Virus genome (UHGV): UHGV-0060032
Source: a virus
Length of the DNA: 14,617 bases
Strand: one strand, 5' to 3'
In this document: positions 274 to 6,749 of the stretch, one piece after another
How the letters are laid out: the number at the start of each line of letters is the position of its first letter
How positions within the stretch are numbered: position 1 is the stretch's first letter
Notes under the pieces: generated by a model
The model's database searches: none
Seen by the model: only the letters and a program-made list of their open reading frames with translations
Told to the model about the DNA's origin: nothing
Position numbers and translations under genes: made by a program

Positions 274-306
274 CGCTCTTATCACATCTAAGCCCTGAAA
301 AAGGGC
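274..306 (+). promoter_or_regulatory. nutR-like N-utilisation site: boxA CGCTCTTA (274-281) and boxB hairpin GCCCTGAAAAAGGGC (292-306)
   Basis: boxA matches the lambda boxA consensus and boxB matches lambda nutR boxB as I recall it; GCCCT/AGGGC is a perfect 5-bp inverted repeat with an A-rich loop, located between cro and cII. Confidence 0.75.
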
Positions 307-720: not shown

Positions 721-1590
721 ATGACAAATACAGCAAAAATACTCAACTTCGGCAGAGGTAACTTTGCCGAACAGGAGCTAAGAGTGGCTGATATCGATGA
801 TGGTTACACCAGATTCGCTAACGAGCTGCTGGAAGCTATCGCAAGTGCCGATTTAACCGCTCGCCAGTTGAAAGTTATGCTGGCCTACGTCCGGAAAACA
901 TATGGATTCAATAAGAAAACAGATCGAATAGCCGATGAGCAAATTGCTCAGTTAACAGGACTATCAAGGCAGAATGTTAACAAGGCTAAAAAAGAACTGA
1001 TTTCAATGAATTGCCTGTTTATGGATGGAAATCAAATCGGTGTAAACAGGGAGGTATCTGCGTGGCAATTCAGCAAGTGTCTCCAAGTTAGCAACTTTGT
1101 CTCGAAGTTAGAGACAAAAAATGTCTCCAAATTAGAGACACTCAATGTCTCGAAGTTAGAGACACTCAATGTCTCGAAGTTAGAGACACACAAAAGACAT
1201 TCTTTAAAGACAAAAGAAAATATTAATAAACCCCCTATATCCCCCAAAAAAATTTCTCAGAAGTTCGACCCGCTAGAAACAGAGTTGCCTGATTGGTTAT
1301 CGGCAGAAACATGGTTGTCGTGGGTTACCTATCGCAAGGAGATAGGTAAGTCGATCAAGTCTAAGCAAAGCGTCACTCAGGCTATCAACGTTCTAAGCAG
1401 AAGTCTGGAGAAGGGATATACACCTGAAGAAATTATAAACCAGAGCATCGCCAGTGGTTGGCAGGGGATTTTTGAACCCAAGACTCCAAAGGGGAAATCT
1501 CAACCGAGGCCGCAGCAGCGAGCTATGCAGGAAAACTTTGCCGCCAAAGATTACGGGCAAACTGAAATGCCTTCATGGGCGCAGGAGTGA
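721..1590 (+). CDS. Replication initiator, lambda O-like (iteron-binding N-terminal domain)
   Basis: N-terminus MTNTAKILNFGRGNFAEQE...DDGY...LKVMLAYVRKTYGFNK closely resembles lambda O N-terminal domain; the gene contains the iteron array; RBS AGGAG upstream. Confidence 0.8.
   Translation: MTNTAKILNFGRGNFAEQELRVADIDDGYTRFANELLEAIASADLTARQLKVMLAYVRKTYGFNKKTDRIADEQIAQLTGLSRQNVNKAKKELISMNCLFMDGNQIGVNREVSAWQFSKCLQVSNFVSKLETKNVSKLETLNVSKLETLNVSKLETHKRHSLKTKENINKPPISPKKISQKFDPLETELPDWLSAETWLSWVTYRKEIGKSIKSKQSVTQAINVLSRSLEKGYTPEEIINQSIASGWQGIFEPKTPKGKSQPRPQQRAMQENFAAKDYGQTEMPSWAQE
1078..1260 (+). repeat. Origin of replication: iteron array plus AT-rich tract inside the O-like gene
   Basis: Four copies of the palindromic 19-mer TGTCTC-N7-GAGACA at 1098, 1122, 1146 and 1170 (exact 24-bp spacing), a degenerate copy at 1078, then an A/T-rich stretch 1189-1260. 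This mirrors ori-lambda organisation. Confidence 0.8.
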
Positions 1591-1592
1591 AT

Positions 1593-2486
1593 ATGAATAC
1601 GACAAATGGTTACAATCTGGCACTGCAAAGGCAACTTGTAGACTCAAAAATCAATGACATTTCTGATCTGAAACAGAAACTTGAGTTTAGCAAAATTGGA
1701 TCAGTATCAGATGGAATGTCAGTTACCAGCACAGTGGAAGAGTGCGAGAAACACGGTAAATATACTTCCTATGAGAAATATCTGACCATCTCAGGAAAAA
1801 GAATTACTTCAAGTAAATCTGAGTGCCCACAGTGCCTTGAGGAGAAAATTCGTAAGAAAGAGATTGAACGTGAGCAGGCAGAACAAAGAGCAAGACAATC
1901 AAAAATTGAATATTTGTTGAATTCTCTCAATATTCCAGAGAGGTTCAAAAATTGCACTCTTCAGAATTATGAGCCTGTTAACGATGATGCAAAGCGAGTT
2001 CTTAAGGTATGCCAGGCATATGCCAGTAAGTGGCCTGAACGCCTTCAAAAAGGTGGCGGACTGGTCATGTGTGGTAAGCCTGGAACTGGAAAGAACCACC
2101 TTGCACTGGCTATCGCTAGGCACGCCATTATCGAGCATCAAAGCTCTGTGATATTTACCACTGCGTTGAAAATTGCCAGAGAGTACAAATCAACATGGTC
2201 TAAGGCCGCAACCAGAACTGAAGAAGAAGTCATTAGGCAATTTACGCATCCTGACTTGTTAATAATCGATGAGGTTGGCGTGCAGTTCGGCAGTGATGCT
2301 GAAAAGCTAATCATGTTCGAAATTATCAACACCAGATATGAATACATGAAGCCAACAATCCTGATTAGTAATCAGAGCAAAGATGAACTTTCGGCATTCA
2401 TTGGTGAGCGTGTTATTGACAGGATGAATGATGGCGGAGGGTGCACTCTTGCGTTTACATGGGATAGTTACAGGAGCAGATCGTGA
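1593..2486 (+). CDS. DnaC/IstB-like AAA+ helicase loader with N-terminal Cys-containing extension
   Basis: Walker A GKPGTGKNHLA and Walker B LLIIDEVG; CEKHG...CPQC motif near N-terminus; start at 1593 chosen for AGGAG RBS; occupies the lambda P position after O. Confidence 0.75.
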   Translation: MNTTNGYNLALQRQLVDSKINDISDLKQKLEFSKIGSVSDGMSVTSTVEECEKHGKYTSYEKYLTISGKRITSSKSECPQCLEEKIRKKEIEREQAEQRARQSKIEYLLNSLNIPERFKNCTLQNYEPVNDDAKRVLKVCQAYASKWPERLQKGGGLVMCGKPGTGKNHLALAIARHAIIEHQSSVIFTTALKIAREYKSTWSKAATRTEEEVIRQFTHPDLLIIDEVGVQFGSDAEKLIMFEIINTRYEYMKPTILISNQSKDELSAFIGERVIDRMNDGGGCTLAFTWDSYRSRS

Positions 2487-2773
2487 CTGGAAAAGAAATC
2501 ATCCTGGAATATCTGAAAACTCATGAACAATTCTCCCCACATGAATTAGCACTGATCACCGGAATACCAAATAACAGAATCGCTCAAGCAGCAAGGCATA
2601 TGGTGAAACAAGGACATTTGAGTGTTGTTGAGCGTAAGTGGAAGACGGTTATTTATGCAAAACGCAAAGTGAAGAAGGAGCCAATTAAAAGAAATCCAGA
2701 TGGTACGGGGTGGGGATGTGCAAATCCAATGACGGCGTTTATTAATAGGGCGCTTATGGAGGTAAGGCAATGA
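2483..2773 (+). CDS. Small hypothetical protein, possibly winged-helix DNA-binding
   Basis: 96-aa ORF with a GTG start overlapping the stop of the loader gene (translational coupling); basic C-terminus; no family recognised. Confidence 0.4.
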   Translation: MTGKEIILEYLKTHEQFSPHELALITGIPNNRIAQAARHMVKQGHLSVVERKWKTVIYAKRKVKKEPIKRNPDGTGWGCANPMTAFINRALMEVRQ

Positions 2774-2798
2774 CCATCTACATCACTGAGCTAATAAC

Positions 2799-2830
2799 AG
2801 GCCTGCTGGTAATCGCAGGCCTTTTTATTT
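2799..2830 (+). terminator. Rho-independent terminator-like hairpin
   Basis: AGGCCTGC (2799-2806), 8-nt loop, GCAGGCCT (2815-2822), followed by TTTTATTT. Confidence 0.65.
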
Positions 2831-2859
2831 GGGGGAGAGGGAATTGGAGGCTTTAAGAA

Positions 2860-3075
2860 ATGAGTACGATAGCTGAGCTTGTCAGGGCTAATTTTCGTGA
2901 AGAGTTGGTGCGTTGGTATCGGTATCGTTCATCGTCCAGTTTGCCGATTGATGAGTTGTATGAGCATTCACCTGCTGCACGACGCTATCCGCGTGACCGT
3001 GTTCTTCGACGGTTGTCCAAACTCAACAATGAGTTTCAGCGCAACAGAATTATTCGGAGTCTGGATTTAAAGTAA
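2860..3075 (+). CDS. Hypothetical protein (71 aa)
   Basis: ORF with GGAGG RBS 8-12 nt upstream of ATG; no recognisable family. Confidence 0.4.
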   Translation: MSTIAELVRANFREELVRWYRYRSSSSLPIDELYEHSPAARRYPRDRVLRRLSKLNNEFQRNRIIRSLDLK

Positions 3076-3085
3076 AGGAGTGAGC

Positions 3086-3292
3086 ATGACAAATCAGCAG
3101 CAAATAGAGTTCATCCTTGAGCAGATTCGAAAAATGCGAGAAAAGAACCAGCCAGACATGATGGAAATATGGAGACGCCAGCAGGAAGAATACCGCAAGC
3201 ATATTTTTGGTGAGAGAAAACAGGATGACTGGAGCCTATATGGCTATGGCACCAGGACAAATAAAAACGGATATAGCCTTTACACATATTGA
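3086..3292 (+). CDS. Hypothetical protein (68 aa)
   Basis: ATG at 3086 preceded by AAGGAG; charged, helical-looking product; no recognisable family. Confidence 0.4.
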   Translation: MTNQQQIEFILEQIRKMREKNQPDMMEIWRRQQEEYRKHIFGERKQDDWSLYGYGTRTNKNGYSLYTY

Positions 3293-3300
3293 GGAATTCC

Positions 3301-3711
3301 ATGAAACAGACAATTTTCCTCAGGAGTAAGCAACAACAGCAAACCGCAATCACCGCCATCCTCGCAACACCACTCGATAAAGACAAGCCAGTTACCATCC
3401 GCATTACTGACTACAAGCGCAACCTTGACCAGAACGCAAAATTTCACGCGATGCTGGCGGATATCGCAAGTCAGGTTCAATGGTGCGGCAAATGGTTAAA
3501 ACCAGAACAATGGAAGGTTTTGTTGATAAGCGGTCATGCAGTGGCAACAAAGCAGGAAGCTGATGTTTTGCCCGGCCTTGAAGGCGAATACGTCAACATT
3601 CGCGAAAGCAGCGCGCAGATGAGCGTGAAGCGTATGGCAAGTCTGATCGAGTACACAACAGCATGGGCTATTGGTCAGGGTGTCAGATTTACCGACAGGA
3701 GGTACGAATGA
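3301..3711 (+). CDS. ninB: NinB-like recombination protein
   Basis: The segment [24 protein letters not shown]...[12 protein letters not shown] resembles lambda NinB as I recall it; GAGGAA RBS; first gene of a nin-like cluster. Confidence 0.6.
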
Positions 3712-5830: not shown

Positions 5831-6015
5831 ACGCCACAATTCAAACGATACCAGAGCTTCTTATCCAGACACGAGGCAATCAGACCGAAGTGGCGAGGAT
5901 GCTTTCCTGCGCAAGAGGAACAGTGCTCAAGTACAACCGAGACAGCAAAGGCGAGCGTCACGTAATAGTTAACGGCGTCCTGATGGTCAAACAAGGCAAG
6001 AGGGGAAGACGATGA
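5827..6015 (+). CDS. ninH: NinH-like small DNA-binding protein
   Basis: 62 aa; TIPELLIQTRGNQTEVARMLSCARGTVLKY resembles lambda NinH (Fis-like HTH) as I recall it; directly upstream of Q. Confidence 0.5.
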   Translation: MNATIQTIPELLIQTRGNQTEVARMLSCARGTVLKYNRDSKGERHVIVNGVLMVKQGKRGRR

Positions 6016-6530
6016 GCATAAGAGAACTAAACCTCACCAAAGAGCAGCACGAGTGGCTGAATGGCTGGCTTGAACTGTGGGGCGCATGGGTTTATTCAGG
6101 TCGTCTGGAAAAGCGCATGAGCAGCGTAATAGCGAAGTTCATGGAGAGCGTAGAGCCGGGAAGAATTATGACAAGGCCAATGTGTAATGATGATGATGGA
6201 ATGTTGATTTCTCAGGTCGTTGATTCCGTCATGTACATTGACAAGAAAGCCTTTGGCATCCTCCTCAGCTACTACGCTCATGGTTCATCTAAGCGAGCAA
6301 TTGCATCCTACTATCACGCGACTGCAAAGCCACGCAAGATGTGTGGACGCGGTGGCGAGGGATGGAGAAAACCTTCACTGGCAACCTGTAGAAACGAAAT
6401 TGACGATATCCTGAAAGCGTCATTATTTGTTTTGTACCAACCAATGCAAAATGCTTTCAAAATGCGTAAACGTGTTGAGAAAGTTAAGCATGTTGCTGTT
6501 AAAAACCTTGACATGCAATTAGCCATTTAG
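6012..6530 (+). CDS. Late-gene antiterminator Q (P22 gp23 / DLP12 QuuD-like family)
   Basis: 172 aa; WLELWGAWVYSG...RPMCNDDDGMLI resembles the Q-antiterminator family; a late-promoter-like element overlaps its 3' end. Confidence 0.65.
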   Translation: MSIRELNLTKEQHEWLNGWLELWGAWVYSGRLEKRMSSVIAKFMESVEPGRIMTRPMCNDDDGMLISQVVDSVMYIDKKAFGILLSYYAHGSSKRAIASYYHATAKPRKMCGRGGEGWRKPSLATCRNEIDDILKASLFVLYQPMQNAFKMRKRVEKVKHVAVKNLDMQLAI

Positions 6531-6593: not shown

Positions 6594-6668
6594 GGGTCAG
6601 TCGTATAAAGGTCATTACGGAAGGCTGTTAACCTTCTTATCGTGGTTCGAGTCCACGCTGTCCCGCCA
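6594..6668 (+). tRNA. tRNA-Asn (anticodon GUU), phage-encoded
   Basis: Hand-folded cloverleaf, 75 nt: acceptor GGGTCAG/CTGTCCC (one U-U mismatch), U8, anticodon stem GAAGG/CCTTC with loop CUGUUAA, T-arm CGTGG-TTCGAGT-CCACG, discriminator G and encoded CCA. Confidence 0.6.
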
Positions 6669-6673
6669 AACAT

Positions 6674-6749
6674 GCTGGTTTAGCTCCAATGGTAGAGCGG
6701 TCGCCTTGTAAGTGAATAGGTAGCGGTTCAAATCCGTTAACCGGCACCA
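6674..6749 (+). tRNA. tRNA-Thr (anticodon UGU), phage-encoded
   Basis: Hand-folded cloverleaf, 76 nt: acceptor GCTGGTT/AACCGGC, D-arm GCTC-CAATGGTA-GAGC, anticodon loop CUUGUAA (stem has one G-A mismatch), T-arm AGCGG-TTCAAAT-CCGTT, discriminator A and CCA. Confidence 0.55.

Follow-up and report, generated by a model that had tools for sequence, protein, structure and literature searches.

A lambda-like ren–tR2–nin junction and the two small genes that it carries in front of ninB

Gene content of the junction

The stretch from position 2483 to 3292 of the virus genome UHGV-0060032 (the window, that is, the whole stretch of DNA analysed, comprises 14,617 nucleotides) is, for a lambda-like phage, an ordinary ren–tR2–nin junction, at which the replication module of the early-right operon meets the nin region. 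Identical sequences can already be found in hundreds of public genomes. The features on which the following sections draw are:

274..306, plus strand: lambda-type nutR site, with boxA CGCTCTTA (274–281) and boxB GCCCTGAAAAAGGGC (292–306)
1575..2486, plus strand: DnaC-like helicase-loader gene, whose stop codon overlaps the start of ORF1
2483..2773, plus strand: ORF1, 96 aa, Ren homologue by sequence, with a winged-helix-like N-terminal part
2770..2856, plus strand: ninA-type mini-ORF, 28 aa (MTIYITELITGLLVIAGLFIWGRGNWRL), matching phrog_5907 at 6e-18
2799..2832, plus strand: lambda tR2 intrinsic terminator by sequence, hairpin 2799–2822 plus T-tract
2860..3075, plus strand: ORF2, 71 aa, assigned to Pfam DUF7301 (PF23975)
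3086..3292, plus strand: ORF3, 68 aa, of a very small family, matching phrog_18758 at 3.7e-43
3301..3711, plus strand: ninB (lambda Orf recombination mediator), Pfam NinB 8.9e-55, the downstream anchor of a variable slot

A preliminary description of this DNA had listed three small ORFs between the helicase-loader gene and ninB and had assigned them to the lambda ren/ninA position. All three lie where it had put them and are coding genes, although the start of ORF3 is better set at 3086. The position was also recognized correctly, as the loader gene is followed by a Ren homologue and then by a ninA/tR2 cassette; a fourth frame, the 28 codons at 2770–2856, had been overlooked. The loader gene itself matches Pfam IstB_IS21 (1.3e-18) and phrog_50, 'DnaC-like helicase loader' (9e-86).

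The tR2 terminator and the ninA frame

The stem of the hairpin, AGGCCTGC/GCAGGCCT (2799–2806 and 2815–2822), comprises 8 pairs, 6 of which are G-C. It encloses an 8-nt loop and is followed by TTTTATTTGG according to the terminator scan, with the T-tract run TTTTATTT directly 3′ of the stem. Hairpin and U-tract are base-for-base identical to the lambda ren–ninB intergenic sequence, and the same hairpin sequence is annotated 'tR2 terminator' in record AJ413274. It carries that label in a preprint as well (bioRxiv 10.1101/042432), and the identical sequence serves as a terminator in transcription constructs, including those of the same work. In lambda, the gene order is pR-cro-O-P-ren-tR2 (PMC3640518). 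Judged by this identity, the hairpin is lambda tR2 itself, located within the ninA frame. The "terminator-like hairpin" reported earlier between ORF1 and the two following ORFs was thus rightly seen as a terminator that separates them, but it was understated, since its sequence is that of lambda tR2. With an identity of at least 97%, the conserved 74-bp ninA/tR2 cassette recurs behind unrelated upstream genes in about 2001 E. coli genomes out of 5426. In phage HK97, the corresponding position also holds a terminator; its stem is entirely different, and the ninA frame there stays open.

The mini-ORF, whose frame contains tR2, encodes a hydrophobic peptide. Its ATG overlaps the stop codon of ORF1 (ATGA) and its own stop codon lies 3 nt before the start of ORF2; these junctions suggest a translational link with the gene on either side. 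It agrees with the description of P22 NinA and PHROG 5907, namely a short frame starting from ATGA with the conserved peptide MTIYITEL…, and its annotated counterparts are 'ninA protein' of P22 (record M10074.1) and ninA of phage Nil2. Among 124 loci chosen by an exact match to the hairpin, the frame is open in 118, and in 107 of these its stop overlaps the start of the next gene; in five loci the ATG is lacking although the hairpin is there. The types of variant seen in codons 1–10 among the exact-hairpin loci are 8 synonymous and 5 conservative non-synonymous ones. Ribosomes leaving ORF1/ren may reinitiate on the AUG that overlaps its stop and carry translation across the tR2 stem, in which case termination there could depend on the spacing between translation and transcription as well as on N. 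Translation of the frame might also yield a conserved membrane-type peptide. The joint proposition that the ninA frame is a functional device and that, separately, ORF2 or ORF3 is a new small inhibitor of host defence, with the C-terminal LY[ST]Y of ORF3 as a docking motif, is doubtful.

ORF2, ORF3, and the slot between tR2 and ninB

ORF2 is preceded by the ribosome-binding site GGAGG at 2846–2850. It matches PF23975 at 6.4e-25 with 87.5 bits (gathering threshold 27) over model positions 1–64 of 65 and, on the strength of this profile match, belongs to Pfam DUF7301. The preliminary description had been unable to place any of the ORFs in a family, a view that is superseded here for ORF2 as well as for the Ren-like ORF1. 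The protein is basic, with a pI of 10.8, and contains an invariant YPRDRVLRR motif; three helices are predicted by AlphaFold2 (mean pLDDT 74.5). There are 34 homologues, the named ones from Escherichia or Salmonella, and dN/dS values of 0.28–0.45 point to purifying selection. The gene is present in 543 of 5426 complete E. coli genomes (about 10%). It is common in prophages of pathogenic E. coli, including O157 and O111 strains. No mention of DUF7301 was found in a literature search. Two apparent relationships of ORF2 were discarded. A PDB match to 1rzs (2.8e-7), obtained with the profile of alignment A1 and suggestive of P22 Cro, is an artefact, because in row P0034 of this alignment, a chimera, a P22-Cro-like N-terminus is joined to a DUF7301 C-terminus. 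Likewise, the entries named 'Lar' within the DUF7301 cluster are true Lar sequences that were misgrouped, and do not make ORF2 Lar-like.

For ORF3, the ATG at 3086 is preferred over the GTG at 3080, with AAGGAG at 3075–3080. This start agrees end to end with phrog_18758 and with the annotation of Bas106 (PQ850599), an isolated phage in which both ORF2 and ORF3 are present, about 99% identical at the DNA level; over positions 2400–3400 its identity is 99%. The good ribosome-binding sites that had been ascribed to the two small ORFs are indeed there. ORF3 is predicted to form a helical hairpin (residues 3–41) followed by a disordered tail with a conserved LY[ST]Y at its end; this C-terminal motif is retained in relatives of 37–62% identity. 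Close homologues number 19, and an exhaustive profile search returned 10 cluster representatives among 1.84 billion, all of them small proteins and none fused to a known domain. The Pfam search of ORF3 gave no significant match, only one at chance level. Purifying selection is again indicated by dN/dS (0.12–0.25), and the gene occurs in 38 of the 5426 E. coli genomes. Assignment to the Lar family (PF14354) was rejected, since ORF3 contains no cysteine and does not match the Lar model, against which a genuine Lar from the same slot scores 1.8e-10.

Neither ORF2, ORF3, nor the ninA frame matched an entry in NCBIfam or in PADLOC, the latter being a library of defence systems that does not cover anti-defence proteins. 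ORF2 and ORF3 matched no solved structure, and fold searches gave generic helical matches or none. Literature searches on Lar with ninB and on lambda ribosome profiling with ninB found nothing specific to the two genes. A toxin–antitoxin or other obligate pair was rejected, as each gene occurs without the other: ORF2 is seen alone, with ORF3, with Lar, or with phiTE_015-like genes, and ORF3 is seen behind phiTE_015-like or other ORFs without DUF7301.

The surroundings of the two genes vary considerably. Among 120 loci with a ninB match, ninB follows tR2 directly in 60 and cargo lies between them in the other 60, with DUF7301 in 23 loci, Lar in 17, and ORF3 in 5. Across lambda-like phages of E. 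coli and Salmonella, the gap between tR2 and ninB is a slot in which insertions recur. This pattern answers the question of presence or absence across relatives that the preliminary description had raised, and its remark that the position often holds anti-defence genes is borne out by Lar, a known anti-restriction gene, in the slot of other phages. ORF2 and ORF3 would most likely act as small helical proteins, each by binding a partner from the host or the phage. As a favoured role we infer, by analogy with Lar in the same slot, that they modulate the defence or the DNA transactions of the host; the shared slot is weak evidence, because most of the other cargo is likewise uncharacterised.

It is unlikely that ORF2 and/or ORF3 instead aid recombination or replication as part of the nin set, for example by modulating NinB (Orf), SSB, or RecBCD-related steps. 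Such a role would suit the position of ORF3 homologues in diverged relatives, where they lie directly upstream of ninB at a distance of 8 nt or, in one lineage, one ORF away, in phages that differ in their replication modules. It would also suit the presence of DUF7301 immediately upstream of ninB where ORF3 or Lar is absent, the tight packing and co-transcription of the genes with ninB, and the strongly basic character of ORF2, which is often found in nucleic-acid-binding proteins. However, both genes are missing from about half of the loci with ninB, ORF3 is rare among E. coli genomes, and ORF2 and ORF3 show no similarity to any recombination protein. Moreover, adjacency to ninB may merely mark an insertion hot-spot. 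Since the slot holds Lar in many Shiga-toxin phages, DUF7301 and the rare ORF3 family are reasonable candidates for a phage accessory-gene screen.

ORF1 as a Ren homologue

The GTG start of ORF1 lies in an overlap with the stop codon of the loader gene (GTGA), with AGGAG 6 nt upstream, and the coupling to the loader gene that had been noted before can be read directly in the sequence. In BLASTP, ORF1 shares 43% identity with lambda Ren over residues 1–58 (E 3e-15). The likeness is seen at the protein level only and is confined to the N-terminal 60%, while the C-terminal third (38 residues) is unrelated to lambda Ren. Judged by its N-terminal part, ORF1 is a homologue of lambda Ren. Among the PHROG families it matches phrog_142, 'Ren-like exclusion protein' (3.5e-13), and, as the best match, phrog_1687, 'MarR family transcription regulator' (6e-40). 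A match to Pfam MarR_2 (PF12802; 17.8 bits, E 0.0037, residues 7–48) does not reach the gathering threshold of 27 and suggests a winged-helix-like fold rather than family membership. Together with the 'MarR' and 'Ren-like' PHROG labels, it agrees with the winged-helix-like pattern that had been recognized earlier.

Ren owes its name to letting the phage escape Rex-mediated exclusion, and homology and position suggest that ORF1 would be its functional equivalent. Across 118 related loci, Ren-type genes are found only beside helicase-loader genes and never beside phage-encoded helicases. Lambda P is paired with lambda-type Ren in 39 loci and the DnaC-like loader with ORF1-type Ren in 6, with no mixed pairs; the loci without Ren have a DnaB-like helicase (51) or a toprim helicase (20). 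Because these loci are not independent samples, the association of Ren with the loader could be plain genetic linkage among related prophages. ORF1 would be translated through its coupling to the loader gene, and the Ren function would be carried by the conserved winged-helix-like N-terminal domain. The divergent C-terminal part probably fits a loader module of the DnaC type rather than one of the lambda-P type. The strict pairing of Ren variant and loader module offers a small, testable clue to the function of Ren.

The best PHROG match, the name MarR family in some database records, the weak MarR_2 match, and a C-terminal third unlike that of lambda Ren could all be taken to mean that the main task of ORF1 is MarR-like regulation of phage or host transcription and that it is not a functional Ren equivalent. 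We regard this as quite improbable, given that the Pfam score is below the cut-off, that 96 residues are far fewer than in MarR proteins, and that position, length, coupling, and N-terminal sequence are all Ren-like. Furthermore, the two readings are compatible, because lambda Ren would draw the same fold-level label.

Transcription across the junction

The nutR site lies directly after a cro-like gene, and both of its boxes are identical to those of lambda nutR (NC_001416, 'Nutr' feature). Because this site is upstream, transcription from pR should pass terminators as soon as N is available; the N gene itself lies outside the window. Transcription would begin at pR, upstream of the window, and then pass nutR. 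At tR2, the hairpin and U-tract would stop RNA polymerase that is not modified by N, whereas the N-modified polymerase would read through. Between 2300 and 3500, no plus-strand promoter was predicted in a scan of the sigma-70 consensus, a limit of the scan that leaves room for a weak or unusual promoter, and no terminator other than tR2 was predicted in the same interval. Given the upstream nutR, N antitermination is most likely needed for the expression of ORF2 and ORF3, which would make them delayed-early genes. Lacking a predicted promoter and lying between tR2 and ninB, they would be made only as delayed-early products, which would appear during lytic growth or upon induction.

In the preliminary description, this position was linked to exclusion or anti-defence morons. 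As true morons, ORF2 and ORF3 would be expressed from the prophage and confer superinfection exclusion or another lysogenic-conversion trait, and their presence or absence among otherwise related phages, like the frequency of ORF2 in the O157 and O111 prophages, would fit such a role. Nevertheless, this is very unlikely: no sigma-70-like promoter precedes the genes and no terminator follows them, they lie behind tR2 inside the repressor-controlled pR operon, and their GC content resembles that of their neighbours. Moreover, neither protein has the signal peptide or membrane segment typical of many exclusion proteins (GRAVY −0.87 and −1.49). Within the tightly packed nin operon, the two are ordinary genes.

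The possibility that at least one of the ORFs is open only by chance, as their shortness and the lack of a Pfam family for ORF3 might suggest, is largely refuted by dN/dS values of 0.12–0.45 (about 0.1–0.45) for ORF2 and ORF3 against relatives of 61–79% protein identity with synonymous divergence up to saturation, by frames that stay intact in relatives of 37–79% identity, by a proper ribosome-binding site before each ORF, and by significant family matches, including the protein-level likeness of ORF1 to Ren; the ORFs are conserved as coding sequence, one of the points on which the earlier account had made its reading depend.

Comparison with known systems

The model as a whole, in which Ren and the tR2/ninA cassette are followed by N-dependent ORF2 and ORF3 cargo that would modulate host defence or DNA transactions, appears reasonably probable. 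For annotation, the locus can be corrected to a Ren homologue (ORF1), lambda tR2 within ninA, and a DUF7301 protein (ORF2).

The morons of lambdoid phages are likewise small, present or absent among close relatives, and inserted between conserved genes. However, they are independent units of promoter, gene, and terminator, whereas ORF2 and ORF3 have no predicted promoter or terminator of their own and are not distinct in GC content. ORF2 is a typical member of DUF7301 (PF23975)/PHROG 1785, and proteins identical to it are named 'DUF7301 family protein' in RefSeq. In Stx-converting phages, Lar (PF14354) occupies the same place as ORF3, after DUF7301 and before ninB, and is similar to it in size, direction, and operon. 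The two have only this position in common, as ORF3 shows no sequence similarity to Lar and has none of its CxxC pairs.

The lambda version of the ninA frame encodes 26 aa and shares the first 23 residues with the mini-ORF described here, while the last five codons differ (…GNWRL). In lambda, the stop of the frame overlaps the start codon of ninB, whereas here the frame ends just before ORF2. The P22 ninA peptide differs from the present one by a single conservative change (I9V). The closest parallel to ORF1 is lambda Ren (NP_040633), which also has 96 aa and is also encoded by the first gene past the helicase-loader gene, with a start that overlaps the loader stop. The stop of lambda ren lies within the ATGA that opens the ninA/tR2 cassette, and ORF1 has the same junction. 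The two differ in their partner, which is lambda P for lambda Ren and a DnaC-like loader for ORF1.

Gene organization of the window

The window is part of a lambda-like phage or prophage and contains the features listed here.

Features of the window discussed in the text
50-265, cro-like gene
274-281, boxA (CGCTCTTA), just after the cro-like gene, identical to that of lambda nutR
292-306, boxB (GCCCTGAAAAAGGGC), also just after the cro-like gene and identical to that of lambda nutR
389-688, cII-like gene
721-1590, O-type initiator (Pfam Phage_rep_O)
1575-2486, DnaC-like helicase loader, directly upstream of the ORF1-3 region
2483-2773, ORF1, 96 aa; its GTG start overlaps the TGA stop of the loader gene
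2770-2856, frame of 28 codons; begins at the ATGA that ends ORF1, encloses a hairpin and stops 3 nt before ORF2
2860-3075, ORF2, 71 aa; GGAGG 9 nt upstream
3086, preferred ATG of ORF3, 68 aa; AAGGAG 5 nt upstream
3301-3711, ninB (Pfam NinB, 8.9e-55), downstream of the ORF1-3 region

When the coordinates were re-read in the window, the three small ORFs lay where the preliminary description had placed them, and its terminator-like hairpin proved real, with an 8-bp stem (2799-2806/2815-2822); the 28-codon frame had been missed. The ORF3 start at 3086 is preferred because it gives an end-to-end fit to phrog_18758 and agrees with the start annotated in phage Bas106. The boxes of nutR (274-306) match lambda exactly, although the flanking cro-like and cII-like genes are not those of lambda. 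Within the O-type initiator gene, a 24-bp unit (TGTCTCGAAGTTAGAGACACTCAA) is repeated four times in tandem (1098-1193); the copies encode a repeated VSKLET peptide and are probably the origin iterons. Farther downstream, tRNA genes Asn-GTT and Thr-TGT (6594-6749) lie just after a Q-like antiterminator ORF (6012-6530), an arrangement also present in Bas106.

A Ren homologue paired with the loader

ORF1 matches phrog_1687 ('MarR family', 6e-40) and phrog_142 ('Ren-like exclusion protein', 3.5e-13), and over residues 1-58 it is 43% identical to lambda Ren (E 3e-15). Lambda Ren likewise has 96 aa, starts in an overlap with the stop codon of the loader gene and stops in the ATGA with which the shared downstream cassette begins, whereas the last 38 residues of ORF1 are unrelated to it. 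Judged by these matches, ORF1 is a Ren homologue. As Pfam MarR_2 reaches only 17.8 bits on ORF1, under its 27-bit threshold, the earlier wording 'winged-helix-like' is a fair description, while MarR membership is not established.

The type of Ren was compared with the replication module in 118 loci that have the same terminator and enough upstream sequence (L005-L123 and others).

Replication module and Ren type in 118 loci
Lambda P with lambda-type Ren, 39
DnaC-like loader with ORF1-type Ren, 6
DnaC-like loader without a Ren-type gene, 1
Module matching no reference replication protein, with ORF1-type Ren, 1
DnaB-like helicase without a Ren-type gene, 51
Toprim-type helicase without a Ren-type gene, 20

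No mixed pair of loader type and Ren type occurs among the 118 loci, and Ren-type genes accompany phage-encoded DnaB-like or toprim helicases in none of 71. Because these genes are neighbours and the loci do not represent independent samples, genetic linkage may account for part of this pattern. The pairing is one of only two points that go beyond routine annotation.

The tR2 terminator within ninA

The lambda ren-ninB intergenic sequence (ATGACCATCTACATTACTGAGCTAATAACAGGCCTGCTGGTAATCGCAGGCCTTTTTATTTGGGGGAGAGGGAA) is nearly identical to window 2770-2843, and TTTTATTT lies directly 3' of the hairpin stem; by this comparison the hairpin is lambda tR2, located within ninA. The same hairpin sequence is annotated 'tR2 terminator' in the phage Nil2 record, is so labelled in a transcription construct (bioRxiv 10.1101/042432) and serves as a terminator in other published constructs, and the order pR-cro-O-P-ren-tR2 has been described (PMC3640518).

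About 2001 of 5426 complete E. coli genomes carry the 74-bp ninA/tR2 cassette at 97% identity or higher. The genes in front of it there are unrelated to one another (ren, DnaB-like helicases, toprim proteins), so the cassette is not only a terminator but also a boundary shared between modules. Phage HK97 (L143, AF069529, 401-499; gp56) keeps the first 32 bases of the cassette but then differs, with a wholly different 10-bp stem followed by six U, which shows selection for terminator structure at this position. Five loci (L010, L061, L071, L079 and L106) have the hairpin and U-tract without the 5' part of ninA, downstream of …AAAGCGTGTTAAAAAAAGATAAA, so the terminator core also moves alone.

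The 28-codon frame is the counterpart of the P22 'ninA protein' (M10074.1) and of Nil2 ninA, and also matches phrog_5907. In 118 of 124 loci chosen by the exact hairpin sequence, an ATG opens a frame of 24-31 codons, which in 107 ends in a stop codon overlapping the next gene's start; five loci have the hairpin without an ATG. Tallied over the exact-hairpin loci, the ten codons that precede the hairpin show eight synonymous and five conservative types of change, and in HK97 the frame is still open and hydrophobic despite the different stem. This suggests, but does not prove, that ninA is translated, given that the hairpin itself was the basis for choosing the loci and that five of them lack the ATG; nin regions in general are known for such tightly packed ATGA junctions. 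Its translation could possibly influence tR2, which is the other point beyond routine annotation.

Expression and contents of the slot before ninB

In lambda, N modifies the pR polymerase at nutR, and the modified polymerase then passes tR2. A scan of 2300-3500 predicted no plus-strand sigma-70-like promoter and no terminator other than tR2. The window does not include the N gene. Polymerase from pR, modified by N at nutR, would read through tR2 into ORF2, ORF3 and ninB. Lambda-type antitermination would thus make these three delayed-early genes, silent in a repressed prophage.

The preliminary description had proposed to follow presence and absence across relatives, and the slot between tR2 and ninB is indeed variable: among 120 loci in which ninB was matched, 60 have the lambda arrangement, with ninB immediately following tR2, and the others carry 0.2-1.3 kb of small genes. 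These encode phiTE_015-like proteins (31 loci), a 68-aa two-segment membrane protein (29), DUF7301 (23), Lar restriction alleviation (17), a 108-aa membrane-anchored protein (12) and ORF3 (5). Bas106 (L001, PQ850599) has an extra 89-aa ORF (3371-3640) between the Ren homologue and the cassette; it ends in the same ATGA, has no Pfam match, and marks a second insertion point, upstream of the cassette.

Family placement, which the preliminary description had found for none of the ORFs, is possible for ORF1 and also for ORF2, a clear DUF7301 member by its Pfam match (6.4e-25); ORF3 is still without a Pfam family. The 34 relatives of ORF2 bear only Escherichia (E. coli, E. albertii) and Salmonella source names and share an invariant YPRDRVLRR motif. 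ORF2 is basic (pI 10.8), with a predicted three-helix structure (pLDDT 74.5). ORF3 has 19 close relatives. Only ten small proteins emerged when 1.84 billion representatives were searched exhaustively by profile; they retain the N-terminal helical hairpin and C-terminal LY[ST]Y at identities as low as 37-62%. In the family alignment (A5) this motif closes a predicted disordered tail at the extreme C-terminus; some close relatives are shortened to 51 aa and lack it. Coding conservation in relatives, on which the earlier reading had been made to depend, is present for both genes (dN/dS 0.12-0.45; ORF2 0.28-0.45, ORF3 0.12-0.25), and by these ratios both are under purifying selection.

A profile match of ORF2 to P22 Cro was rejected as an artefact of a chimeric alignment row, P0034 (Logan contig, 3199 nt), which joins the first 40 residues of P22 Cro to the C-terminal half of DUF7301 (…DAY|PRDRVLRRL…); this protein may be a genuine recombinant or the product of misassembly. 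The 90%-identity cluster of protein P0003 holds genuine Lar sequences together with DUF7301 proteins, which makes its 'Lar family' name misleading.

Possible roles of ORF2 and ORF3

Fold and sequence searches with ORF2 and ORF3 gave no functional lead. We tentatively favour delayed-early modulators of the host or its defences. In Stx phages Lar occupies the exact position of ORF3, and Lar's place in the slot, position alone, is the sole link of either gene to anti-defence. Action beside NinB in recombination ranks second and is rather doubtful. Diverged DUF7301 homologues always lie between the replication genes and ninB, adjoining ninB or with Lar or ORF3 in between, and diverged ORF3 homologues lie directly upstream of ninB or one ORF off; an obligate ORF2-ORF3 pair was rejected, as the two occur separately across loci. 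ORF2 is present in 543 and ORF3 in 38 of 5426 E. coli genomes. Exclusion expressed from the prophage is improbable for genes that would be silent under repression.

Relation to known phages

The region has a conventional, well-supported layout, with a Ren homologue that probably fits a DnaC-type loader module, tR2 inside ninA, and a known nin-region hot-spot occupied by two conserved accessory genes. Public databases already contain all three proteins as exact copies, spread over hundreds of contigs under names such as 'Phage exclusion protein', 'MarR family transcriptional regulator' and 'DUF7301 family protein', and phage Bas106 is 99% identical to window 2400-3400.
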